Assembly: GCA_039831155.1 (NCBI GenBank)
Contig: JBDONT010000011.1
Coordinates: forward strand, 1-64,000
DNA length: 64,000 bases
Direction: 5' to 3'
Origin: Nautiliaceae bacterium
GTDB taxonomy: Bacteria > Campylobacterota > Campylobacteria > Campylobacterales > Nautiliaceae
The notes under the pieces are model-generated. The model saw only the letters and a list, made by a program, of their open reading frames with translations, searched no databases and was not told the origin of the DNA. Positions 45,298 through 56,510 of the stretch are shown here, one piece after another. The position numbers and the translations under genes are program-made. The first letter of the stretch is position 1. Each line of letters begins with the position of its first letter.

Positions 45298-46362
45298 ATG
45301 TTTGATTTTGTAAAACCTGGGGTATTAACTGGAAGTGAAGCTGCAAAAGTTATGGATGTTTGTAAAGAGAAAGGTTTTGCACTTCCGGCAATTAACGTAG
45401 TAGGGACAAATTCTGTAAATGCGGTAATGGAAGCTGCAAGAGAAGTAAATCTTCCTATTATCATTCAGTTTAGTAACGGAGGAGCTCATTTCTGGGCTGG
45501 AAAAGGGCTTGATAACGATAATCAAAAAGCTGCAGTTTTGGGTGCGATAGCAGGTGCTAAGCATATCCATACATTAGCGGAGGCTTATGGAGTGCCGGTA
45601 ATTTTACATACGGACCACGCGGCAAGAAAACTATTGCCTTGGATTGACGGGCTTTTAGAAGCCAACGAAAAACATTATGAAAAATATGGAAGACCTCTTT
45701 TTAGTTCTCATATGCTTGATTTAAGCGAAGAACCACTTGAAGAGAATGTGGCAACTTGCAAAGAGTATCTAAAAAGAATGAGTAAAATCGATTTACTTCT
45801 TGAAATTGAACTTGGAGTAACCGGTGGGGAAGAAGACGGAGTTGATAACACCGGAATTGATAACGCAAAACTTTACACTCAACCGGAAGATGTTGCTTAT
45901 GCTTATAAAGAGTTAAGTGAAGTTAGCGATTTATTTACAATTGCTGCAAGCTTTGGAAATGTTCACGGAGTTTATAAACCGGGACACGTAAAACTTGAAC
46001 CGATTATCCTTAAAAATTCACAAGAGTATGTAAGAGAAAAATTTAATCTAAAAGATGAAAAACCTATTAGATTCGTATTCCACGGAGGAAGTGGAAGTGA
46101 GCTTAGTAAAATTCACGAAGCTATTGATTATGGTGTCGTTAAGATGAATATCGATACGGATACTCAATGGGCGTTTTGGAGTGGAGTAAAAGGTTATATT
46201 GAAAAATATCACGACTATCTACAAAGTCAAATTGGTAACCCGGAGGGTGAAGATAAACCAAACAAAAAATACTATGACCCTAGAAAATGGCTAAGAGAGG
46301 GTGAAAAAAGTATGAAAGCAAGAGTAATTGAAGCATATAAAGACCTTAGAGCTATCAAGTGA
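45298..46362 (+). CDS. fbaA: Class II fructose-bisphosphate aldolase
   Basis: HTDHA, FSSHMLDLSE, GNVHGVY, FHGGSGS, KMNIDTD. Confidence 0.97.
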   Translation: MFDFVKPGVLTGSEAAKVMDVCKEKGFALPAINVVGTNSVNAVMEAAREVNLPIIIQFSNGGAHFWAGKGLDNDNQKAAVLGAIAGAKHIHTLAEAYGVPVILHTDHAARKLLPWIDGLLEANEKHYEKYGRPLFSSHMLDLSEEPLEENVATCKEYLKRMSKIDLLLEIELGVTGGEEDGVDNTGIDNAKLYTQPEDVAYAYKELSEVSDLFTIAASFGNVHGVYKPGHVKLEPIILKNSQEYVREKFNLKDEKPIRFVFHGGSGSELSKIHEAIDYGVVKMNIDTDTQWAFWSGVKGYIEKYHDYLQSQIGNPEGEDKPNKKYYDPRKWLREGEKSMKARVIEAYKDLRAIK

Positions 46363-49052
46363 TTTATGAGTATATAAAAGAAGGGTTAAAAAACTCTTCT
46401 TTTTTTCTTCTGCCTTTTCCCACAGGAAGTGGTAAAACTTATGCCGTTAAGAAATTTATCAATTCCACTTCAAAAAAAGTTTTATTCGTAACTCACTTAC
46501 ATCATCTTTTAGAAGATGTTTATAAAGATATTAAAAACAAAAAAGTACTTTATTTAAAAAGTGACGTCCAAAGCATTCTTGACGTTATAGATGAAAAATT
46601 TGAATTTGTAAATAGATATGAAGAGTTTAAAAACATTAAAAAATACTCCAAAATAAGGGGTGATTTGTATGATATTTTAAAAAATGACGTAAGTAAGTTG
46701 AAATTTAGGATTTTAAGCGATTCAAAAAGACTTCTCTCAAAAGATTTGACAAAACTTTTAAACGACGCTAAAAAGCTTTTTCCTTCGGTTGAAATTGAAA
46801 AATACGATGTAGTAATTACTACCACCCAAAAACTTGCCAGAGGGTTTTTTAATTTTGAAAATAAAACGTTTAAGAGTGTCTTTAAAGACGGTATTTTGTT
46901 CATTGACGAGTTTGACGCCCAAAAAGAGGTCTTAACGGATGTTTTTTGCGATTTAAAGGATGTTGAAATAATCGATTTGTTTTTAAGAATATATTTTGGC
47001 ATTAATCAAAAAGAGTTTGTTAAAAGATATAACCCTTCCAAAGAGCTTCGTTTAAAATTTAAAACCCTTTATAAAAAAGGGGTTGACAGGTTTTATAGGG
47101 TCGATACTGTAGATAATTTTTACACTTTTGCTATGGACAGTTTTAACGGTGTTATGGAAAGTGGAAATTTTATCGATAAAGAGCTTTTTGATGAAATTAA
47201 AAGTACTTTGAATTGGTTTTTCTCTTTTTCTAAAAGATATATTAATGAAATTGACGAATATTTAAGATACGTTTTGGGTAAAAACAGGGATGAATTTTAT
47301 TTGTATGCTTTAAAGAAAATTCTTTATCAGGATTTTGAGTTAGGGTCTTTAAAGGATGATTTTTATTCTAAAGGTTTTAGTTTAATAAACGTCTCAAGAG
47401 AGGTTGATTCCGAAATAGAGAATTTTAAGTGTTATGATGTTTTTATAACGCCGGAAGGATTTTTAAAGAGTTTAAATGAATCTATGCAGATAGTTGGCAT
47501 TTCTGCAACTTCCGAAATAGAAACGGTGGTAGGTAATTTTGACTTGGATTATTTGGAAGTTGATAAGTTTGAAGTGCCTTTAAAAAAACTTGAAGATAGA
47601 GAGATAATTCCTAAAGTGTTTGATGATGATTTGCATAAATGTATAAGAGAGTGTTTTTTAGGGGATTTAAATGCTTTAGAGATAATGAATTTTATAAAAA
47701 GGGTAAACGAGTATGCTTTGAGAAAATTTATTCACTTTTTTTACGCTTATAAGGAGTTTATGGATAATAACATTCATACCTTTTTGTATCTTGAGACGCC
47801 TTATTTAACTAATTATAAGAGTTTTTCAAAAGAGTTTAACGAACTTTTTATTCTTTTTTGTGCTGTTAACGGTTTTGAAAACTATTTAACCGAACTTAGA
47901 GATAAAAGAGAATTTAAAGCGGGTAAAAGAAGTTTTATCATAAGCAGTTATAAAAATATAGGGGTTGGGGTTAATCTTCAGTATGAATATAAAGGTTTTG
48001 TAAAAGATATAGACGCTATTTATCTTGGCGAAGTTACCAACTTAATTCCGGAAGATAAATTAAAATCCGTTTTTATTTTGTATTCTTTATACGTAAACGG
48101 GTATATAGGAAGTTTTAAAAAATATTTTTTGGAAATTGTAAACGGAAACTTTAGGGGGTTTAAAGGATTTTACGCTCAAACGGATGATTTTGTTGCAAAT
48201 GTGGTTAAGGTGTTGATTCAGGCGGTAGGGAGGCTTTATAGAGCTAAAAACGATAAAATTTATGTTTATACGAATAAAGCAAACTCCGATATTATCGCTT
48301 CGTATGTCGGGGATGTTTATCTTCCAAAAGCTTTAAAGAGTTTAGCGGGAGTTGAGAGAGACAGTGTAAAACCCTCTTTTGAAACTAGGGTAAAAATTAA
48401 AAACTCCCATATAAAATCAAAATTTAGCTACTATAAAAAAGGGTTTGAAAATCCTAAGATAGTTTCACAGTATAAAAAATTAAGAGAGGAGATTTACAAT
48501 TCTTTTTCATTGGATGAAGAAAAAGAGTTTAATGAGAAGTTCGGAAGAGGGTATTTTTATAAACAAAAGGATGATTTTAGTTATCTTGAGATATCTTTTG
48601 AGAAAAAAAGAGGTTTTAGTGAATATAAGGAGTTTGAGTTTGAGGGGGAGTTTAAAAAGTTTGAGTGTAAAATAAAAGGAGAATATCTTCTTTTGCCTTA
48701 TGCTTATGAGATATTTAAAGGGATTTTGGGAGAAAAGGTAGGAGAATATGTTTTTAATAACCGTTTTTCGATAAAACTTGAAGAGGTGGAAGAGTTTGAG
48801 GTTTTTGATTTTAAGTTTAAGGATAATTATATAGATTTTAAAAACTATTCCGATTTTAATTTAAAAAGAGATATAACGTCTTTAATAGAAAAAACGGCTT
48901 TGAAACTTAAAAGAGTAGGGGGTAAAAAGGCTTTTTTGATTAACGTCTTTGGAAAGGAAGGTAAGATTTACGAGGTTGGGGATGTGGTTGTCGTGCCTTA
49001 TTTAATAAAAGGGGATAAAGTTAATATGAAAGTGAGGGAGTGGTTTGATTAA
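46359..49052 (+). CDS. SF2 helicase fused to a C-terminal PD-(D/E)xK nuclease; DdmD-like
   Basis: PFPTGSGKT (I), FIDEFD (II), GISATS (III), GVGVNL (V), QAVGRL (VI); FKGILGE...FEVFDF...YIDFKNY nuclease motif. Confidence 0.82.
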   Translation: MIYEYIKEGLKNSSFFLLPFPTGSGKTYAVKKFINSTSKKVLFVTHLHHLLEDVYKDIKNKKVLYLKSDVQSILDVIDEKFEFVNRYEEFKNIKKYSKIRGDLYDILKNDVSKLKFRILSDSKRLLSKDLTKLLNDAKKLFPSVEIEKYDVVITTTQKLARGFFNFENKTFKSVFKDGILFIDEFDAQKEVLTDVFCDLKDVEIIDLFLRIYFGINQKEFVKRYNPSKELRLKFKTLYKKGVDRFYRVDTVDNFYTFAMDSFNGVMESGNFIDKELFDEIKSTLNWFFSFSKRYINEIDEYLRYVLGKNRDEFYLYALKKILYQDFELGSLKDDFYSKGFSLINVSREVDSEIENFKCYDVFITPEGFLKSLNESMQIVGISATSEIETVVGNFDLDYLEVDKFEVPLKKLEDREIIPKVFDDDLHKCIRECFLGDLNALEIMNFIKRVNEYALRKFIHFFYAYKEFMDNNIHTFLYLETPYLTNYKSFSKEFNELFILFCAVNGFENYLTELRDKREFKAGKRSFIISSYKNIGVGVNLQYEYKGFVKDIDAIYLGEVTNLIPEDKLKSVFILYSLYVNGYIGSFKKYFLEIVNGNFRGFKGFYAQTDDFVANVVKVLIQAVGRLYRAKNDKIYVYTNKANSDIIASYVGDVYLPKALKSLAGVERDSVKPSFETRVKIKNSHIKSKFSYYKKGFENPKIVSQYKKLREEIYNSFSLDEEKEFNEKFGRGYFYKQKDDFSYLEISFEKKRGFSEYKEFEFEGEFKKFECKIKGEYLLLPYAYEIFKGILGEKVGEYVFNNRFSIKLEEVEEFEVFDFKFKDNYIDFKNYSDFNLKRDITSLIEKTALKLKRVGGKKAFLINVFGKEGKIYEVGDVVVVPYLIKGDKVNMKVREWFD

Positions 49053-50445
49053 TAAAATAGTTTTTAATTCGGACAAAAAAGAGCTTTTTAAAAAGTATTA
49101 TTACTATAAAATGCAAAAATCAAAAGAGAATTTTAAAAAACTAAAAGAGATAAAAAAAGAGTTTTTCGAAGTAAGTGGGAATACTATTATAGTAGCTTCA
49201 AAAGAAAAATTAAACCTTCTAAAACTCTCTTTTAAAGAGTTTAATGAGCTGTGTTTTGATTCTCTTTTTAACATTTATCTTAAATCGTTAAATCAAGAGA
49301 ATGCTTTTTGTGGTTATAGTGACGGATATTACACTCATTTTTCCAAAAATATTTATTTAAAATTTTTTTCTTTAAAAGGGGCTTTAAATATAGTAGCTAA
49401 AAAAATTAAAAAGAAAAAGTCTGCAAGATATACAGCTAGAGATTCTTTATATGTTTGTGAAAATGGGGAATACTCTTTTGTGCCTAATGATAAGCAGGTT
49501 AAATATTTGGGTTTTTACGATAAGGATTATTCAAAGACAAAGCAGTTTCATTTGATGAGGTTTATTGAAAAAAGTGGGGTTTGGTTTGAAGAGATTGAGT
49601 TTACGAAGTTTGTTTTCAGCAAGAAAGAAGGATTGGAAGATAAATTTAAAGACCTTGAAATAAAAGTTATAAATTACACCAAAAACATGGGTTATGAAAA
49701 AGAACTGATAGAAATGATAGAAAAAAAGGGAGCTAAAGTTGTAAAAAATTCTAATTTAATTCTTACTATAACTCTTCCTAAAGAGAATTATTCTAAAAAC
49801 GACCCTTATAAAAAAAAGGGTTTTCTTTCTCAAAACGTAACTGTTAAAACTCCTATTAATAAAAATACCGTTTCGGTTTTATTAAAAGAGCTTTTGATAA
49901 AAGAAGAGATAGAAAAAAATAGGTTTTTAATTCCTAAACATCTATTTGATGGATTTGAGTTTTATATCCCTTATAAAGAGAAGCTTTACGGGATGAAGGT
50001 TTATAAGGATAGATTTGAGTTTGTGGTTGAAGATGATTATTATGACGCTTTAATGGTGGTTAAATATGAAGATAATATCAATATAATAAAAACGACGCCT
50101 TATAGGAAACTTCCCAAACGTTTAAAAGAGATTGATTCTCTTTTGCAAAAGGGAGTAAAGATAAGAAATAAAAGCTACTCTTATCTTTATAATGATTTGA
50201 TAGGAATAAACTATTTTGAAGAAGAAAACAGACTCTTATATTTTACAGGACTTTTACCAAACTCTTTACGTTCTACCTATAAAGGGCTTGTGATTAGGGA
50301 AATTGATGTAATTAAGGGTAGGGTTTTAAAGGAGGTGCTTGAATCTATGGATGAATTTTTTGTAAATTTTAAAGAATTGACGGTTATGCCTTATTTTGCA
50401 AAATATATAAGGGAGAAGTATGAAATCCCCTATCGTGCCTTTTGA
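49045..50445 (+). CDS. Putative prokaryotic Argonaute-like (MID/PIWI) protein; DdmE-like
   Basis: DPY...SQNVT...LLKELLIK (MID 5'-end pocket-like) and C-terminal FFV..ELTVMPYFAKYIRE; TTG start with GAGGGAG RBS overlapping the helicase gene. Confidence 0.62.
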   Translation: MINKIVFNSDKKELFKKYYYYKMQKSKENFKKLKEIKKEFFEVSGNTIIVASKEKLNLLKLSFKEFNELCFDSLFNIYLKSLNQENAFCGYSDGYYTHFSKNIYLKFFSLKGALNIVAKKIKKKKSARYTARDSLYVCENGEYSFVPNDKQVKYLGFYDKDYSKTKQFHLMRFIEKSGVWFEEIEFTKFVFSKKEGLEDKFKDLEIKVINYTKNMGYEKELIEMIEKKGAKVVKNSNLILTITLPKENYSKNDPYKKKGFLSQNVTVKTPINKNTVSVLLKELLIKEEIEKNRFLIPKHLFDGFEFYIPYKEKLYGMKVYKDRFEFVVEDDYYDALMVVKYEDNINIIKTTPYRKLPKRLKEIDSLLQKGVKIRNKSYSYLYNDLIGINYFEEENRLLYFTGLLPNSLRSTYKGLVIREIDVIKGRVLKEVLESMDEFFVNFKELTVMPYFAKYIREKYEIPYRAF

Positions 50446-51265
50446 GTTTAGAAGAAAGTTTTTTCACATTAAAAGAGACGATTTGTTAAGACCTTTTGAG
50501 GGAAATAAGGCGAGAAAGTTTTATTATTTTTTTAAAAACGATTTTCCGGGTATTAAAAGGGTCGTTTCTTTCGGGTCTAATCAGTCTAACGCTTTTGGAG
50601 CGTTAAGCAGGCTTTGTAAGTTAAAAGGATGGGAATTTGTTTATTATACTTCCCATATACCTTCTTATTTAAAAGAAAATCCCCAGGGAAATTATCTTTT
50701 GGCTTTAAAAAATGAAGCGAAAGTTATAGAATGCGGGCTTTATGGAGAAGAACTTAGAAGTTTTGTACTTGGTTTAAAAGATAAAAAGACTCTTGTGATA
50801 GAAGAGGGTGGAAGGGTTAAAGAGAGTGAAGAGGGAATAAAACTTTTGGCAGATGAAATAAACGACTATGCTAAAAAGCATAATTTAAAAGTTTTTTTAC
50901 CGAGTGGGACCGGTACGACTGCCTATTTTCTTTCAAAACATCTTGATGTTGAGGTTATAACGACTCCGTGTGTTGGGGATGAAAATTATTTAAAAAAACA
51001 GTTTGAGTGGCTGGGTGGTGGAAAAATTCCCACTGTTTTACCTCCTAGAAGGAAATATCATTTCGGAAAACTTTATTTGGAGTTATATAAAATATGGAAA
51101 GAGTTAAAAAAGAGTGGAATTGAATTTGATTTATTATATGACCCTATAGGATGGGATACGATTTTAAGGCATAATCTTAAAGATATTTTGTATATTCATC
51201 AAGGTGGGCTTATAGGGAATGAGAGTATGTTAAAAAGGTATGAAAGAAAATTCGAATTTGTGTAG
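50420..51265 (+). CDS. PLP-dependent ACC deaminase/D-cysteine desulfhydrase family protein
   Basis: KRDDLL..GNKARK, GSNQSN, PSGTGTT, FDLLYD, HQGG. Confidence 0.88.
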   Translation: MKSPIVPFEFRRKFFHIKRDDLLRPFEGNKARKFYYFFKNDFPGIKRVVSFGSNQSNAFGALSRLCKLKGWEFVYYTSHIPSYLKENPQGNYLLALKNEAKVIECGLYGEELRSFVLGLKDKKTLVIEEGGRVKESEEGIKLLADEINDYAKKHNLKVFLPSGTGTTAYFLSKHLDVEVITTPCVGDENYLKKQFEWLGGGKIPTVLPPRRKYHFGKLYLELYKIWKELKKSGIEFDLLYDPIGWDTILRHNLKDILYIHQGGLIGNESMLKRYERKFEFV

Positions 51266-51358
51266 ATTTGAAGCATTATTTATAAAATTTTCTTATATTA
51301 ATTGTAAATGAAAAGGCATTTTGATATTATTATAGTATATTTCAAAACGGAGGGTAGT

Positions 51359-53218
51359 ATGGAATTTTATGTCACTGCTTCTATAGTGTTGCCTTGGATA
51401 GCGGCACTTGTTATTTATTTAGCTAAAAATGACACTGTTACAAATGTATTGTCATTTTTGATGTTACCTATTTTAGGCTATTTTGCTTGGGAGGTTTATT
51501 TTAGTGATACTTTACCTATGTTAATCGAGACTCCTAAATGGGTGGGTAGTTTAATTACTATTTACGATTTCGGTTTACTTAGTTATTTTTTATATCAAGG
51601 TATGAAAAACAGAAGTACTTTGGTTTCCGCTTTAGCTATTTTGCAATTGGCTCTTTTAATTATTGTGGTATTAATGATTCAACATTCGGATACCGCCGAT
51701 ATTTATGTGGATAAATTAACTGCTTTTATGTATATGATTGTAGCGATTGTCGGGGTTCCTATTGCGATTTTTGCTACTAAGTATATGGAGTTTGACGAAA
51801 AAGGTAAACACAGTTTCGTTGCTATTTTAATTTGGTTTTTAGGTGTTATGAATTTTGCCGTAAGTGTAAATAACATCGAATGGTTCTTTGCACTGTTTGA
51901 AACGACTACTTTAGCTTCATTTGTTTTAATTAGATTCAGAATGGATAAAGAAGCCGTTAATAACGCCGTTTTAGCTTTATGGATGAATCAAATAGGTGGT
52001 GTTGCTATTTTATTCGCTTTATTAATGTTAATAAAAACTAGCGGAATGTATCATTTTACGGATTTATTAAGTGTTGATCCTAAAATGTTGTCTTTAGCTG
52101 CTTTAGGATTTTTAAGTTTGAGTGCTCTTGTTAAAGGTGCTCAAATGCCTTTTCATAAATGGCTTTTAGGAGCGATGGTTGCACCGACTCCTGTTAGTGC
52201 GATACTTCACTCTGCTACAATGGTAAAAATAGCACCTTATTTACTTCTTAGAATTTCTCCTATTATTAAAGGTACGCTTTTAGCTAAACTTTTGATAATT
52301 ACGACGGGATTCGTTTTCGTAGCGGCGGCTGTAATAGCTCTTACGCAAGATAATTTCAAAAAAATTCTTGCATATTCTACTATTTCGCTTTTAGGTCTTA
52401 TGATGCTTGCAGCAGTTGTAGGTACGCCTATTGCTATTACTGCTAGTTTAATTTTAATTCTTTTCCACGCATTTGCAAAAGGTTTCTTATTCGTAGAAGC
52501 CGGTGTGCTTGAAAAAGTGTTCCATGTAAAATATATTAAAGAGATGAGAAGACTTATCGAAAAAGCACCTCTTACACTGATGTTTATTTTCTTCGGATTT
52601 TTAAATATGACGTTTGTGCCTTTTGGTACTTTTATAGGTAAATGGTTAATGATAGAAGAGGTTAGTGGATTTTTATTTCACGGAAGTTATGTACTTTTAA
52701 TTCTTTATGTAGGTGCCGGAAGTGCGTTTTTAAGTGTGCTTTATATGAAAGTTCTTGGAATTAGTGTAAGAAAATCTCACGGGATTGAAAAAGTAAAATT
52801 TACATCACTTCCTATTAGATTTAATTTCGTTTCGGTTTGGTATTATGCTTGGTTGTTCGCTTTAACGATTTTTATCGCACCTTTTATCGCTACTCAATTA
52901 GTACCTATTGCCGGCGAAATTAGCGGTAGTTTAGTGAATATTCACGCTGACGGATTATCATTGATAATTAATCATTCGACTCTTTATTTCTGGCAAATTA
53001 TGGGAGCATTGGTAATTTTACTTTTAATTCACGCGTTGCCTTTCTTTGTGAATTTTAAAAATGTGGATACGGCAATGCCTTATAACTGTGGGGAAGCGTT
53101 TCCAAGACATATCGAAACTTATAATTTCGTATGTATTTCAAAATATGAAAATTATATAGTAGCCTTTAGTGTTGCTTTATTTATTATGGTACTAGTTCTT
53201 GGAGGAGGTTTATTATGA
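51359..53218 (+). CDS. echA: Ech hydrogenase subunit A (NuoL/MrpA-like antiporter subunit)
   Basis: KGAQMPFHKWL..AMVAPTPVSAILHSATMVK, KKILAYSTIS, HAFAKG; ATG 51359 after GGAGG. Confidence 0.88.
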   Translation: MEFYVTASIVLPWIAALVIYLAKNDTVTNVLSFLMLPILGYFAWEVYFSDTLPMLIETPKWVGSLITIYDFGLLSYFLYQGMKNRSTLVSALAILQLALLIIVVLMIQHSDTADIYVDKLTAFMYMIVAIVGVPIAIFATKYMEFDEKGKHSFVAILIWFLGVMNFAVSVNNIEWFFALFETTTLASFVLIRFRMDKEAVNNAVLALWMNQIGGVAILFALLMLIKTSGMYHFTDLLSVDPKMLSLAALGFLSLSALVKGAQMPFHKWLLGAMVAPTPVSAILHSATMVKIAPYLLLRISPIIKGTLLAKLLIITTGFVFVAAAVIALTQDNFKKILAYSTISLLGLMMLAAVVGTPIAITASLILILFHAFAKGFLFVEAGVLEKVFHVKYIKEMRRLIEKAPLTLMFIFFGFLNMTFVPFGTFIGKWLMIEEVSGFLFHGSYVLLILYVGAGSAFLSVLYMKVLGISVRKSHGIEKVKFTSLPIRFNFVSVWYYAWLFALTIFIAPFIATQLVPIAGEISGSLVNIHADGLSLIINHSTLYFWQIMGALVILLLIHALPFFVNFKNVDTAMPYNCGEAFPRHIETYNFVCISKYENYIVAFSVALFIMVLVLGGGLL

Positions 53219-54057
53219 AATTCGAGACATTAATGTTTCTTTTAACTCTTTTTGCTCCTATTTTAGGAGGACTTGTTTATGGAGTGGAGAGAATAGTAAA
53301 AGCTAGAATGCAAAGTAGAATGGGGCCTCCTTTAATGCAGCCTTTTTATGATTTTTTTAAGCTTATGGATAAACGTCCTTTAATGGTACATTCATTGCAC
53401 GCCGTTATGGGAATTATGTATTTTGTTGCTTGTTGGTTTTCTTTGCTGGTTTTATTTATGGGAAATGATTTATTAGTAGCCGTATTTTTTCATGTAATTG
53501 CCGTTTTAGCTTTAACAATCGGAGCGTTTAGCGTTAGAAGCTCTTATAGTGTAATCGGGGCTATGAGAGAACTTATGCATATGATTAGTTATGAACCTTT
53601 AATGGTTTTAATGGTTGTTGCTTTTTATGAAGTTGTCGGAAGTTTTAATTTAAAAGATATTTTAAATTATCAAGGAATTCCTCTTTTTGAAATTCCGGTT
53701 GTATTTATAGCTTTTGTTCTTGCTATTCCGATGATGTTACATAAATCTCCTTTTGACGTAGCCGAAGCTCATCAAGAAATTGTAGGAGGTCCTGAAATAG
53801 AATATAGCGGTCCTTTTTATGAAGCGTTATATACCGGTAAATGGATAGAGTATATTTATGTGTTTTTCTTTGTGTTTTTATTTGGAGGAAGTCATTATTG
53901 GTTGGGTGCGTTGCTTATAGTGTTGGTGTTTTTATTTGTAAATGCACTTGATAACGCTAGTGCAAGACTTGATTTTAGAAGTATGGTGAAATTCTCATGG
54001 TTTGTGCTTATACCGATTTCAGCTCTTAATGTAATCTTTTTATCTTTATGGAGGTAG
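53215..54057 (+). CDS. echB: Ech hydrogenase subunit B (NuoH-like)
   Basis: ERIVKARMQSRMGPP..QPFYDFFKL, PFDVAEAHQEIVGGP..EYSG. Confidence 0.9.
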   Translation: MKFETLMFLLTLFAPILGGLVYGVERIVKARMQSRMGPPLMQPFYDFFKLMDKRPLMVHSLHAVMGIMYFVACWFSLLVLFMGNDLLVAVFFHVIAVLALTIGAFSVRSSYSVIGAMRELMHMISYEPLMVLMVVAFYEVVGSFNLKDILNYQGIPLFEIPVVFIAFVLAIPMMLHKSPFDVAEAHQEIVGGPEIEYSGPFYEALYTGKWIEYIYVFFFVFLFGGSHYWLGALLIVLVFLFVNALDNASARLDFRSMVKFSWFVLIPISALNVIFLSLWR

Positions 54058-54059
54058 TT

Positions 54060-54554
54060 ATGGGAATTTTTAGTAAATTTAGAAAAAAATCGCCTTGGAT
54101 TTTACATTATAATACCGGTGGATGTAACGGATGTGATATAGAAATTTTATCCGCTCTTGCACCTAAATTCGATATAGAAAGATTCGGAATGTTAAATAGG
54201 GGGAATCCTAAACAGTCCGATATTTTACTTGTAACCGGACCGGTTACTAAAAGATGTAGGGATGTTTTAAGAAGACTTTATCTTGAAATGCCAGAACCTA
54301 AAGTGGTAGTGGCAATGGGAGCTTGTGCTCATGGCGGAGGAATATTTAGAGATTTTTATCACGTGGAAAACGGGGTTGATAATATAATCCCGGTTGATGT
54401 TTGGATTCCCGGATGTGCTCCAAGAGTTGAAGCTTTAATTGACGGTATGGTTGAAGCCGTTAAAATTTGGGAGAAAAAAACGAAAGAAAAAGAGTATATG
54501 AGAAATCATAGCGAAGAATTACTTAAAAAATTAGGAGCTAGAGATGATGATTAA
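54060..54554 (+). CDS. echC: Ech hydrogenase small subunit C (NuoB-like)
   Basis: GCNGCDIE, VTGPVT, GACAHGGG, PGCAPR. Confidence 0.92.
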   Translation: MGIFSKFRKKSPWILHYNTGGCNGCDIEILSALAPKFDIERFGMLNRGNPKQSDILLVTGPVTKRCRDVLRRLYLEMPEPKVVVAMGACAHGGGIFRDFYHVENGVDNIIPVDVWIPGCAPRVEALIDGMVEAVKIWEKKTKEKEYMRNHSEELLKKLGARDDD

Positions 54555-54918
54555 TCCTGAAGTTACGTTTTTTGAAGTAACGCTTGATAATGTGGTTGAA
54601 CTGATTAAAAATTGGTATGATGAAAACAAATATCATTATGTGACTGTAAATGCTACCGATAGTGGAAACGGCGTAACTATAGATTGGATATTTTCTAAAT
54701 ACTATGATAAAAATAAATTAGTGGTATTTAGAGCGGAAAATGTAGCGTACGATGCAAAGATTCCTTCTATTGTAAATGTTATACCTAGTGCATGGATAGC
54801 GGAATGGGAGCTTGCGGATTTATTCGGACTTGATGTTGAAAACGCTGCAAAAGGAGTGTTTATAGAACCGGATGCTCCTCAAGCTCCGTTAAGAAAAGGA
54901 GATAATAATGGGAAATAG
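54544..54918 (+). CDS. echD: Ech hydrogenase subunit D (NuoC-like)
   Basis: PSI..VIPSAWIAEWELADLFG. Confidence 0.85.
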   Translation: MMINPEVTFFEVTLDNVVELIKNWYDENKYHYVTVNATDSGNGVTIDWIFSKYYDKNKLVVFRAENVAYDAKIPSIVNVIPSAWIAEWELADLFGLDVENAAKGVFIEPDAPQAPLRKGDNNGK

Positions 54919-55993
54919 AATAGTTGTGCCTTTTGGGTCCCAACATGTGGCACTGCCAGAACCGGTTAGTTTTTTGTTTGAGACTCAAAATGAAGTAATT
55001 ACAGACGTACAAGTTAATATAGGTTATGTTCACAGAGGTATAGAAAAAGCTGCAATTACTAAGTTTGAATATACCCAGCTTCCGTATCTTGTAGCTAGGG
55101 TTTGTGGGCTTTGTTCTATTACTCACGCCGGTGCTTATACTCACGGAATTGAAAAACTTTTAGGAATTGAAACAAATAAAAAAATAGATTACTTAAGAAT
55201 GCTTGTTGTAGAACTTGATAGAATTCATTCTCATATGCTTGCAAATGGACACGTTGCCGAGGTTGTAGGGTATGAAAATCTTTTTATGCAAACATTTAGA
55301 TACAGAGAAGACGTAATGGACATACTTGAAAGAATTACGGGTAATAGAGTTCAGTATGATTATCAAGTAATAGGTGGTGTTTCTAGAGACTTTGATAAAG
55401 AGATAGAGGATTTTGCAAGAGAGAAACTTTTAAAACTTAAAGCAAATACTGAAAAATTGATGGAATTTTTTGAAAATGACTATACCTTCGGACTTAAAAC
55501 AAAAGGAATAGGAACAATTTCAAAAGAGGTGGCGGCTAAATTTAATACGGCGGGACCTATAGCTAGAGCAAGCGGGCTTGAAACGGACGCAAGAGCTGAA
55601 TATGATTATCTTCCTTTTGAGGAGGTTGGATATAAGCTTCAAACAAGAACCGAAGGGGATGTTTGGGCTAGAAATATGGTTAGATTTGATGAAGTTATGA
55701 ATTCTATTGAAATGTGTCTTAATATACTTGATGGAATTCCTGAAGGAGAACATAGAGTAAAAGTAAAAGGAAGACCGGACGGAGAAGTCTTTGTAAGAGT
55801 TGAAGCTCCAAGGGGAGAATGCTTTTATTATCTAAAAGGAAATAAGACAAAAGTTCTTGAGAGAGTAAGAATTAGAGTGCCGACTTATGCAAATATTCCG
55901 GTGCTAAAAGAACTTTTTGTGGGTGAAAAATATTCAGACGCTCAAGCGATAGTATTGAGCTTTGATCCTTGTATGAGTTGTACGGCAAGATAA
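54908..55993 (+). CDS. echE: Group 4 [NiFe]-hydrogenase large subunit E
   Basis: RVCGLC (L1) and DPCMSCTAR (L2) Ni-binding motifs; HRGIEK; EAPRGE. Confidence 0.93.
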   Translation: MGNRIVVPFGSQHVALPEPVSFLFETQNEVITDVQVNIGYVHRGIEKAAITKFEYTQLPYLVARVCGLCSITHAGAYTHGIEKLLGIETNKKIDYLRMLVVELDRIHSHMLANGHVAEVVGYENLFMQTFRYREDVMDILERITGNRVQYDYQVIGGVSRDFDKEIEDFAREKLLKLKANTEKLMEFFENDYTFGLKTKGIGTISKEVAAKFNTAGPIARASGLETDARAEYDYLPFEEVGYKLQTRTEGDVWARNMVRFDEVMNSIEMCLNILDGIPEGEHRVKVKGRPDGEVFVRVEAPRGECFYYLKGNKTKVLERVRIRVPTYANIPVLKELFVGEKYSDAQAIVLSFDPCMSCTAR

Positions 55994-56003
55994 AGGAGAA
56001 AAA

Positions 56004-56510
56004 ATGATTCAAATGTTTATAGAATCTCTTAAAAACTTAGTTTCAAAACCGGAAACGATTAAATACCCTTTTGCTCCTTCTCCTGAGCCTAAAGGATATA
56101 GGGGGACTATTCTTTACAATGAAGAGCTTTGTATTTTTTGTGACAAATGTGAAAACATATGTCCTCCAGGGGCTATAAAATTTGAGGTTGTAGATGTGGA
56201 AAGTGGTAAAAAACAATATAACTACAATCCTTATCTTTGTATTTATTGTGGTGCTTGTGTAGATGCTTGTCCTAAAGCAGATGAAGGATGTTTAATTCAA
56301 GCTGAAACAAGAACTCCTGTACTTGGAGAAAGTGTCGTAAAGGATAAGAGACTAGGGTATTTTATAAATGAGATAGATAACCCTAAGCTTGTAGAAAAAA
56401 AATGGCGTGAGCTTGAAATTAGAGCTGCTAAAAGCAGAGAAGATTTAGCAGCGTATAAAAAAGCTAAAAGAGCCGCAAAAAAGACAGCAAAGGCAAAAGC
56501 CTCTGAATAG
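56004..56510 (+). CDS. echF: Ech hydrogenase subunit F (2x[4Fe-4S], NuoI-like)
   Basis: CIFCDKCENICP and CIYCGACVDACP. Confidence 0.9.
   Translation: MIQMFIESLKNLVSKPETIKYPFAPSPEPKGYRGTILYNEELCIFCDKCENICPPGAIKFEVVDVESGKKQYNYNPYLCIYCGACVDACPKADEGCLIQAETRTPVLGESVVKDKRLGYFINEIDNPKLVEKKWRELEIRAAKSREDLAAYKKAKRAAKKTAKAKASE

Follow-up and report, generated by a model that had tools for sequence, protein, structure and literature searches.

A compact, two-gene form of a known defence system was found in the 64,000-nt stretch of Nautiliaceae DNA analysed here (hereafter the window). The pair is a new form of DdmDE, in which a 466-aa DdmE-type Argonaute without the insertion domain (INS/DID) is encoded directly downstream of an 897-aa DdmD helicase-nuclease (Table 1). 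We consider the 466-aa protein to be a working miniaturised DdmE, at a probability of roughly 0.8 based on sequence comparison and predicted structures; its guide type, target, mode of recruitment and defence phenotype are inferred. Both partners are small, with 466 and 897 aa vs about 690 and about 1,150 to 1,190 aa.

Table 1. Features of the compact DdmDE locus, in coordinates of the window.
Feature	Position	Strand	Remarks
Class II fructose-bisphosphate aldolase gene	45298-46362		One flank
Two-gene DdmDE cassette, 4.07 kb	46363-50419	.	Inserted between two housekeeping genes
Compact DdmD-type SF2 helicase with PD-(D/E)xK nuclease (predicted)	46359-49052	+	897 aa; GTG start overlapping aldolase stop
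Compact DdmE-type Argonaute, P0001 (long-C pAgo family, predicted)	49045-50445	+	466 aa; TTG start
N lobe: compressed N, L1, small PAZ-like and L2 of DdmE (predicted)	49045-49644	+	Residues 1-200
MID domain with guide 5'-end pocket (predicted)	49645-49929	+	About residues 201-295
PIWI-like domain with C-terminal Mg2+/5'-phosphate ligands K453 and E457 (predicted)	49930-50442	+	About residues 296-466; 171 aa
Site of the absent INS/DID	50110-50166	+	Residues 356-374; gap at alignment columns 625-722
PLP-dependent enzyme gene	50420-51265		Other flank

Identification of the compact Argonaute

The open reading frame on which the original prediction was built is present in the ORF listing, on the + strand, with identical bounds and length. 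Its TTG start and the stop of the upstream gene overlap by 8 nt. The start is supported by the orthologue P0006 and by P0007, a relative of 501 aa, both of which start at the same aligned position; a conserved N-terminal T/I-N-x-I motif directly follows the aligned start in this family. Used alone, the 466-aa sequence gave two Pfam matches, both sub-threshold (DUF2172, E = 0.05; BBS2_hp, E = 0.11), and zero matches from the PADLOC and NCBIfam libraries. A single-sequence phmmer search of the PDB returned no DdmE, only an adenylate kinase (E = 0.97). A profile of 16 aligned relatives (A1) gave four PDB matches, all four of which were DdmE and near full length (E = 1.3e-70 to 1.6e-46). The profile made from three compact sequences alone (A3) matched Vibrio cholerae DdmE (E = 7.8e-4), and its hhalign alignment with a profile of ten long relatives extended over residues 1-461 (E = 1.2e-38). 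These profiles and the predicted fold identify the protein as a genuine Argonaute belonging to the DdmE (long-C pAgo) family. It had been described as Argonaute-like with a possibly reduced architecture; its profile matches in the PDB are DdmE and its fold matches are DdmE, then Argonaute/PIWI proteins, and it is reduced in total length and by the loss of INS/DID.

The compact architecture recurs in a second lineage that is only 33-36% identical, where a DdmD of 908 aa (P0051, 35% identity) is encoded immediately upstream of the 501-aa DdmE, also with an 8-nt gene overlap. In a word-indexed protein search, in which the 8,000 top word-sharing candidates were scored, the single query recovered only a 94% orthologue and the profile recovered seven proteins. 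A search with a narrower alignment (A2) led to three genome loci.

Guide pocket and domain architecture

The MID pocket proposed in the original prediction spans residues 252-288 and is made of NDPYKKKGFLSQNVTV (residues 252-267) and VSVLLKELLIKE (residues 277-288), with the D253 codon at nt 49801, matching the earlier estimate of about 49800. Because D253, Q263, E282 and K286 are invariant among relatives (16/16 aligned sequences and 24/24 in a larger alignment), the motif is no chance pattern. K453 and E457, near the C-terminus, are also invariant in the 16 aligned sequences. Residues Y255, Q263, E282 and K286 align with Y363, Q376, E401 and K405 of V. cholerae DdmE, and K453 and E457 align with K674 and E678. 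According to the V. cholerae study (10.1101/2024.05.10.593530), these six residues bind the guide 5' end and Mg2+, and changing each of them to alanine abolished plasmid elimination in Escherichia coli. The predicted pocket of the 466-aa protein keeps all six, and the columns that the named motif shares with the V. cholerae residues mark it as the guide 5'-end pocket. No acidic tetrad was seen among the invariant or nearly invariant family columns (16 and 24 sequences), as judged by column conservation; the DdmDE papers describe the DEDX slicer tetrad as absent from DdmE.

A comparison of the predicted structure with DdmE, which had been proposed earlier, pointed to MID and RNase H-like PIWI folds. 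AlphaFold model 2 (pLDDT 73.5, pTM 0.69) had 23 PDB matches at E <= 0.001, all of them DdmE or Argonaute/PIWI proteins, although the model input alignments contained long DdmE relatives and this fold evidence is not independent of homology. DdmE chains took the first six places, with E-values of 1.7e-16 to 3.4e-14 and TM scores of 0.52-0.61 (by query length), and ranks 7-23 were 17 Argonaute/PIWI proteins (E = 5e-5 or worse, TM 0.26-0.42). With the other model, ranks 1-6 were also DdmE.

The first estimate of the domain layout, with about 250 aa for the N and linker domains and under 200 aa for PIWI, was roughly right: the N lobe has ~200 aa, MID lies at about residues 201-295 and PIWI has ~171 aa. 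The models gave a pLDDT of 80-93 for MID residues 201-250 (both models) and mostly 82-92 for PIWI residues 301-400 (model 2). The N lobe alone (residues 1-200) matched long DdmE relatives in hhalign at 96% probability (E = 3.5e-9), residues 1-182 falling colinearly on columns 6-234, and five of five column-shuffled controls gave E-values of 0.26-0.69. This colinear match contradicts the short-pAgo (MID-PIWI only) design that had been suggested from the size of the protein. Residues 86-200 align to columns 120-249 (E = 3.9e-6), but pLDDT falls below 50 at residues 86-102 and 108-151. This low-confidence stretch is where the small PAZ-like sensor (C-APAZ) is expected.

The DdmD partner and the inserted locus

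The 897-aa neighbour, previously thought to be a helicase-nuclease, directly matched solved DdmD structures in a phmmer search of the PDB (E = 5.2e-20 for that of Lactobacillus casei and 3.6e-10 for that of V. cholerae), and the DdmD profile A5 gave PDB matches at E = 9.3e-145 and 2e-123. Motifs GSGKT, DEFD, SATS and QAVGR start at residues 23, 183, 382 and 621, and at the nuclease end GILGE, FEVFD and IDFK start at residues 788, 813 and 825. Residues G23/K26/T27, D183/E184, S382/A383/T384 and Q621/G624/R625/R628 are invariant in 20 of 20 sequences, as are E792, E814, D817, D826 and K828. The nuclease motifs align with those of L. casei and V. cholerae DdmD, the PD-(D/E)xK site of the latter consisting of E1059, E1082, D1085, D1100 and K1102. 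By these alignments, the partner is a DdmD helicase-nuclease with SF2/XPD-type helicase motifs and a C-terminal PD-(D/E)xK site, in which every predicted catalytic motif is intact. Having such a partner instead of an APAZ effector had been regarded as unusual, but this pairing is what defines the DdmDE system. Complex prediction for the 466-aa DdmE with DdmD residues 400-665 (presumed HD2) scored 0.00 in two runs (mark 0.32), which speaks neither for nor against binding.

The pair is an insertion between housekeeping genes of a Nautiliales-like genome. In two complete genomes of the same genus, the aldolase and PLP-dependent enzyme genes abut and the site is empty, and the cassette was present in one of 60 other relatives searched. 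Its GC content is 0.285 vs 0.325 for the window, and only 4 of 120 same-sized windows had a lower value. Both genes are under purifying selection, with dN/dS values against the orthologous locus of 0.10 for DdmE (58.5 synonymous and 29.5 non-synonymous differences) and 0.115 for DdmD. The 466-aa reading frame was intact in all six cluster members of this length. Contigs from two metatranscriptome runs of one sample matched parts of both genes with 0-1 differences, with some cassette bins uncovered; such matches do not show transcription and are a weak hint of expression.

Loss of the insertion domain

INS/DID lies inside PIWI; it has been reported to be conserved across the clade and to be required for recruiting DdmD. 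In V. cholerae DdmE, its deletion abolished anti-plasmid activity (10.1101/2024.05.10.593530). According to the DdmDE papers, DdmE touches DdmD mainly through INS together with L1/PAZ, and the role suggested for the insertion domain in the L. casei paper is to recruit DdmD rather than to activate it. Between the anchor columns of this site, the 466-aa DdmE has 18 residues vs 81-112 in 11 INS-bearing relatives, and its family-profile match skips profile positions 469-528. Beyond INS/DID, many loops are also missing. The domain is absent from 13 of 24 aligned rows (seven compact and six longer) and is therefore not a universal feature of DdmE homologues. The original prediction had missed both this absence and the joint shrinkage of the two partners.

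The six longer INS-less relatives (P0016, P0017, P0022, P0030, P0036 and P0037) are metagenomic proteins of 583-669 aa. They have 11-18 residues at the INS site and share the pocket motifs with the compact DdmE, but exceed it in length by 120-200 aa. A quick tree (SH-aLRT support) placed them and the compact clade in different halves, so the INS losses in the two groups may be independent. The published picture of the clade was drawn from close orthologues with a 60% identity cut-off; our six longer INS-less relatives suggest that it under-samples DdmE diversity. Plasmid matches to P0022 were canonical-size pairs (e.g., a Nostoc plasmid pair of 1,143 and 710 aa), and searches of viral contigs recovered relatives of neither P0022 nor the compact alignment. 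In our literature search, no INS-less or compact DdmE was described, a point on which supplementary figures (e.g., Fig. S6, INS conservation) could bear, and none of the papers listed for DdmDE with Nautilia, Campylobacterota or related names contained the term DdmDE.

Proposed mechanism and alternative explanations

Most likely, the compact DdmE, a presumably catalytically inactive Argonaute, would load short 5'-phosphorylated DNA guides in its MID/PIWI pocket, and the guide would base-pair with invading plasmid or phage DNA. The displaced strand would be passed to the co-encoded DdmD, which would degrade the DNA. Since INS/DID is absent, recruitment of DdmD would have to use other surfaces or the DNA structure itself. 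Because the INS deletion inactivates the V. cholerae protein, a natural INS-less DdmE might recruit DdmD differently or not at all. We tentatively propose, at slightly less than even odds, that the pair is a natural minimal DdmDE in which an N lobe-MID-PIWI Argonaute of 466 aa recruits or licenses the 897-aa DdmD without INS/DID.

The pair could also defend the cell without direct binding between its members, if DdmE marked or opened the target as a D-loop and DdmD loaded onto the displaced strand unaided or by way of a different surface. The identity of the protein would be the same, this being a mechanistic variant of our best explanation. Such self-loading is in line with the loss of INS from the main contact described in the papers and with the preference of the L. 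casei paper for recruitment over activation by this domain. The HD2 of the compact DdmD is, moreover, short by 22 profile positions just after residue 427, a loss near the interacting helices in L. casei numbering according to a rough mapping. However, L1/PAZ also touches DdmD in the solved V. cholerae and L. casei systems, and with the N lobe kept a smaller direct interface is plausible here; the close 8-nt overlap of the genes, shared by two lineages, fits a physical pair. We regard defence without direct binding as unlikely. Decay is a different matter: the protein is ~220 aa shorter than V. cholerae DdmE, a domain essential there is gone, and truncated DdmE-like pieces are found elsewhere, such as a 298-aa ORF adjoining a transposase on an Arcobacter plasmid. 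A non-functional remnant of a full-length DdmE is nevertheless very unlikely given the low dN/dS of the gene, the intact frames of its cluster, the six retained pocket residues, the intact partner with all its motifs and the same compact architecture in a distant lineage.

Under a third explanation, the protein would be a MID-PIWI-only short pAgo carrying an unrelated domain at its N-terminus and would act in abortive infection like SPARTA/SPARDA. The length of 466 aa falls within the short-pAgo range, and one 2026 review labels DdmE itself a 'short pAgo'. Yet residues 1-200 follow the DdmE N lobe colinearly, the best structural matches are DdmE rather than short pAgos, PADLOC models gave no match, and the surrounding genes encode DdmD and housekeeping proteins, with no APAZ, TIR, SIR2 or DREN partner. 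We thus find this explanation extremely improbable.

[quoted passage not shown] Current DdmDE models come from two solved systems (V. cholerae and L. casei) and make the insertion domain central to DdmD recruitment. A conserved INS-less pair under purifying selection indicates that this handle is not universal and offers a direct test case for the minimal requirements of handover. Sensor and effector occupy about 4.1 kb, with an Argonaute about two-thirds of the known DdmE size; few pAgos that have an N lobe may be smaller. Such a size is relevant to the search for a compact DNA-guided DNA binder, although the thermostability and programmable binding envisaged in the original prediction are speculative.

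Comparison with characterized systems

The V. cholerae system (DdmE PDB 8u0j, 8u3k and 9ezy) resembles the compact pair in its end-to-end homology and fold, in the position of DdmE directly downstream of DdmD and in the six identical guide 5'-end/Mg2+ ligands; no conserved acidic tetrad was seen among the family columns. In contrast, its DdmE has 677-690 aa in deposited chains, with a longer N lobe and MID, and its DdmD has 1,190 aa. Residues K523 and E568 of V. cholerae DdmE, which form salt bridges to DdmD, have no equivalent positions here, these being missing along with INS/DID. The V. cholerae genes lie on a pathogenicity island, whereas the compact pair is inserted in the chromosome of a vent-type member of the Campylobacterota with a small genome.

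L. casei DdmD (PDB set 9iw3, 9ixm and 9ix4) is the best direct PDB match of the 897-aa partner. L. casei DdmE, which was matched by the family profile (E = 1.6e-46), shares the domain order N, L1, small PAZ, L2, MID and PIWI. Nothing in the 466-aa DdmE corresponds to the L. casei insertion domain, a segment of 107 aa (residues 510-616) that touches DdmD HD2 and holds the 5'-P-proximal duplex. Short pAgos of the SPARTA/SPARDA type and long-A pAgos (TtAgo, CbAgo) have the MID-PIWI fold in common with the compact protein, which differs from them by its DdmE-type N lobe and by having no APAZ-effector partner; its family columns gave no sign of a slicer tetrad.

Identification of a compact DdmE

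The gene for the 466-aa protein had been placed at 49045..50445 by the original prediction, which is exactly where the translated ORF lies. Its start and the stop of the 897-aa ORF upstream overlap by 8 nt, and its end overlaps the ATG (50420) of the next gene. The aligned start position is common to the protein, its orthologue P0006 and P0007, a distant relative.

Features of the compact ddmDE locus and its downstream neighborhood
Feature	Position	Strand	Description
DdmD partner ORF	46359..49052	+	897 aa
Compact DdmE ORF	49045..50445	+	466 aa, TTG start
Cassette junctions	46356-46362, 49045-49052, 50420-50445		Start and stop overlap or abut at 3/3
Complex-I-like and membrane-bound NiFe hydrogenase cluster	51308-56510		Proton_antipo_M, NADHdh, Oxidored_q6, Complex1_30kDa, Complex1_49kDa/NiFeSe_Hases, 4Fe-4S ferredoxin

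With the single 466-aa protein as query, Pfam returned two matches, both below threshold, PADLOC and NCBIfam returned no match, and phmmer against the PDB gave only noise. At E ≤ 0.001, an exhaustive phmmer search of 1.84 billion representatives yielded 28 proteins, including the 466-aa orthologue P0006 (94%) and the 501-aa P0007 (36%, end-to-end, E = 6.5e-31). For the rest, it was mostly the last 90 to 130 residues that matched the C-termini of 590- to 690-aa proteins. When a profile of the 16-sequence family alignment (A1) was searched against the PDB, all four distinct sequences matched were DdmE, among them that of L. casei (E = 1.6e-46) and that of V. cholerae, matched over residues 11-674 of its 677-residue chain (E = 1.3e-70). 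To rule out that the signal came from the long sequences, we built a profile from the three compact sequences only (A3), which matched V. cholerae DdmE at E = 7.8e-4. In hhalign, A3 also matched A4, an alignment of ten long relatives, with residues 1-461 covering columns 6-645 of 664 (E = 1.2e-38).

Two AlphaFold2 models were predicted without templates. The first, built from 16 rows, was a weak model as a whole (pLDDT 57.7; MID domain 87-91), and the second (24 rows) reached pLDDT 73.5 and pTM 0.69, with only residues 86-102 and 108-151 below 50. Foldseek against the PDB gave nine matches at E ≤ 0.001 for the first model, of which ranks 1 to 6 were DdmE chains (E = 5.2e-13 to 3.1e-9) and rank 8 was a non-Argonaute protein. 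For the second model, the best six of 23 matches at the same threshold were DdmE chains, with E between 1.7e-16 and 3.4e-14 and TM scores of 0.52-0.61 by query length, and the other 17 were Argonaute or PIWI proteins, including TtAgo, CbAgo, AaAgo, MpAgo, KmAgo, AfPiwi and animal PIWIs. Because the input alignments contain DdmE relatives, these fold matches corroborate the homology and are not an independent test of it. The protein, called Argonaute-like in the original prediction, is a genuine Argonaute.

Guide pocket

In V. cholerae DdmE, Tyr363 and Lys405 are reported to flank the 5′ nucleotide of the guide, and Gln376, Glu401, Lys674 and Glu678 to hold the Mg2+ bridging the 5′ and third phosphates; alanine at any of these six residues abolishes plasmid elimination in E. 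coli (Loeff et al., 10.1101/2024.05.10.593530). Residues were mapped by counting along the profile-PDB alignment, where chain 8u3k_E carries the numbering of that paper. In the order Tyr363, Lys405, Gln376, Glu401, Lys674, Glu678, the six columns hold Y255, K286, Q263, E282, K453 and E457 of the 466-aa protein, in which residues 252-267 read NDPYKKKGFLSQNVTV (D253 at nt 49801) and residues 277-288 read VSVLLKELLIKE. Y255 is nearly invariant (24 aligned rows) and the other five are invariant in 16/16 sequences. Since these conserved residues share columns with the V. cholerae ligands, the MID pocket of the original prediction was correctly called.

Domain reduction and loss of INS

The protein had also been called short-pAgo-sized and, together with its helicase-nuclease partner, an unusual, trimmed design. 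It is not a short pAgo, as its residues 1-200 are colinear with long relatives. Aligned alone against these, residues 1-182 matched columns 6-234 (probability 96%, E = 3.5e-9), versus E = 0.26-0.69 for all five column-shuffled controls, and the pieces 1-90 and 86-200 mapped in order (E = 3.5e-5 and 3.9e-6). The small PAZ-like sensor, if retained, would lie in the low-confidence part of the model (pLDDT < 50).

What is missing is INS, the insertion within PIWI that is reported to serve DdmD recruitment. The segment between anchor residues L356 and R374 counts 18 residues, compared with 81-112 in 11 INS-bearing relatives, and positions 469-528 of the genome-search profile were skipped in its match to the protein. 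Published work on V. cholerae DdmE describes salt bridges from INS residues K523 and E568 to DdmD (Yang et al., 10.1101/2024.07.20.604412) and loss of activity upon INS deletion (10.1101/2024.05.10.593530). Six longer DdmE relatives (P0016, P0017, P0022, P0030, P0036 and P0037; 583-669 aa) also lack INS, with 11-18 residues at the site, and therefore the published conservation of INS in the clade fails for distant homologues. In a quick tree, which had SH-aLRT support only and was drawn with a midpoint root, the seven compact rows grouped (support 92) beside INS-bearing relatives, and the six longer INS-less relatives lay separately. This placement hints that INS was lost twice independently, but the starred branches force no more than one change. 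We found no description of an INS-less or compact DdmE in the article texts searched. Such a protein is moderately interesting, as it goes against the presumption that the recruitment domain is universal.

On the Arcobacter sp. plasmid CP146529.1 (L015, 6344-7240), a protein of 298 aa, annotated as hypothetical, aligns with the C-terminal 70 residues of the 466-aa protein (42% identity, E = 5e-4). It is probably a truncated DdmE remnant and has a transposase gene nearby. Six phmmer matches of 276-327 aa (P0011, P0013, P0015, P0023, P0028 and P0031) may be fragments of this kind or proteins cut off at contig ends.

The DdmD partner

The upstream protein directly matched solved DdmD, that of L. 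casei at E = 5.2e-20 and that of V. cholerae at E = 3.6e-10; as a 20-sequence profile it scored E = 9.3e-145 and 2e-123. Both its helicase motifs (Walker A, DEFD, SAT, QxxGR) and its nuclease residues E792, E814, D817, D826 and K828 are invariant, and the latter align with the DdmD pattern published as E1059, E1082, D1085, D1100 and K1102. Shortening is diffuse, with 19 deletions of 6-22 profile positions each (209 in total) and no whole domain gone. In a search limited to proteins of 493-1,570 aa, 33 of 36 homologues at E ≤ 1e-5 were 1,118-1,208 aa long; the three short ones were P0051 (908 aa, 35% identity), the 897-aa orthologue and a weak match of 839 aa. An open-ended ORF on metagenome contig L013 is 98% identical to the last 126 residues of P0051 and overlaps the start of a 501-aa compact DdmE by 8 nt. 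With a short DdmD and a short DdmE in both, sensor and effector were therefore co-miniaturised in two lineages sharing about 35% identity.

Another homologue, the 1,132-aa P0052, carries the source name "TorA maturation chaperone TorD", probably a mis-annotation. DdmD and DdmE pairs of canonical size were seen in Loigolactobacillus bifermentans (L008, 699-6279; 1,160 and 703 aa) and on a Nostoc plasmid (L014, 1961-7524; 1,143 and 710 aa). The latter pair, annotated only as hypothetical proteins, adjoins cytosine methyltransferase and phage-like genes.

Insertion site, selection and distribution

Housekeeping genes surround the cassette. Upstream are those for a methyltransferase, an HhH-GPD glycosylase, YebC, a PPIase and class II aldolase, and downstream are a PLP-dependent enzyme gene and the hydrogenase cluster, the latter consistent with a vent bacterium that metabolises hydrogen. 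Two complete genomes of the same genus have the aldolase and PLP-enzyme genes directly next to each other and align with the window up to 46362 and again from 50438; thus the pair is a 4.07-kb insertion without mobility genes. Its G+C content is 0.285 versus 0.325 for the window. The aldolase stop meets the DdmD GTG, the DdmD stop the DdmE TTG, and the DdmE end the PLP-enzyme ATG, and these overlapping or abutting junctions therefore place the inserted pair inside an apparent housekeeping operon. The first residues of the PLP enzyme differ from those in the empty-site genomes (281 aa versus 290 aa). One contig of a DNA run (X3) joins 46356 to 50504, as an empty-site variant of a related population would. 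This contig, with a depth of 2.7 and a shorter flank of only 21 letters, is too weak to be counted.

Of 60 other relatives searched, one had the cassette, an 88% complete genome of the same genus, and a near-identical locus was found in an uncultured Nautiliales bacterium. Against the latter, dN/dS was 0.10 for DdmE, 0.115 for DdmD and 0.055 for the flanking PLP-enzyme gene. Pieces of both genes matched contigs of two metatranscriptome runs from one sample with 0-1 differences, which is not proof of transcription.

Proposed working and comparison with known DdmDE

By homology, the compact pair most likely works as DdmDE does. A short 5′-phosphorylated DNA guide would sit in the MID/PIWI pocket and base-pair with target DNA, and the non-target strand would pass to DdmD, which would translocate 5′-3′ and cut. 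As INS is absent, the handover step cannot use it. The N-lobe/L1 surface of DdmE is described as also contacting DdmD in both solved complexes; the handover may be made by this retained surface or by the DNA junction itself.

The 466-aa protein is an INS-less compact variant of the known DdmDE system and not a new kind. According to the domain boundaries published for L. casei DdmE (N 1-96, L1 97-165, PAZ 166-200, L2 201-258, MID 259-407, PIWI 408-509 and 617-715, insertion 510-616), the N lobe has about 200 aa here compared with 258, MID about 95 compared with 149, and PIWI about 171 compared with 201, whereas the 107-aa insertion of the L. casei protein is without counterpart.
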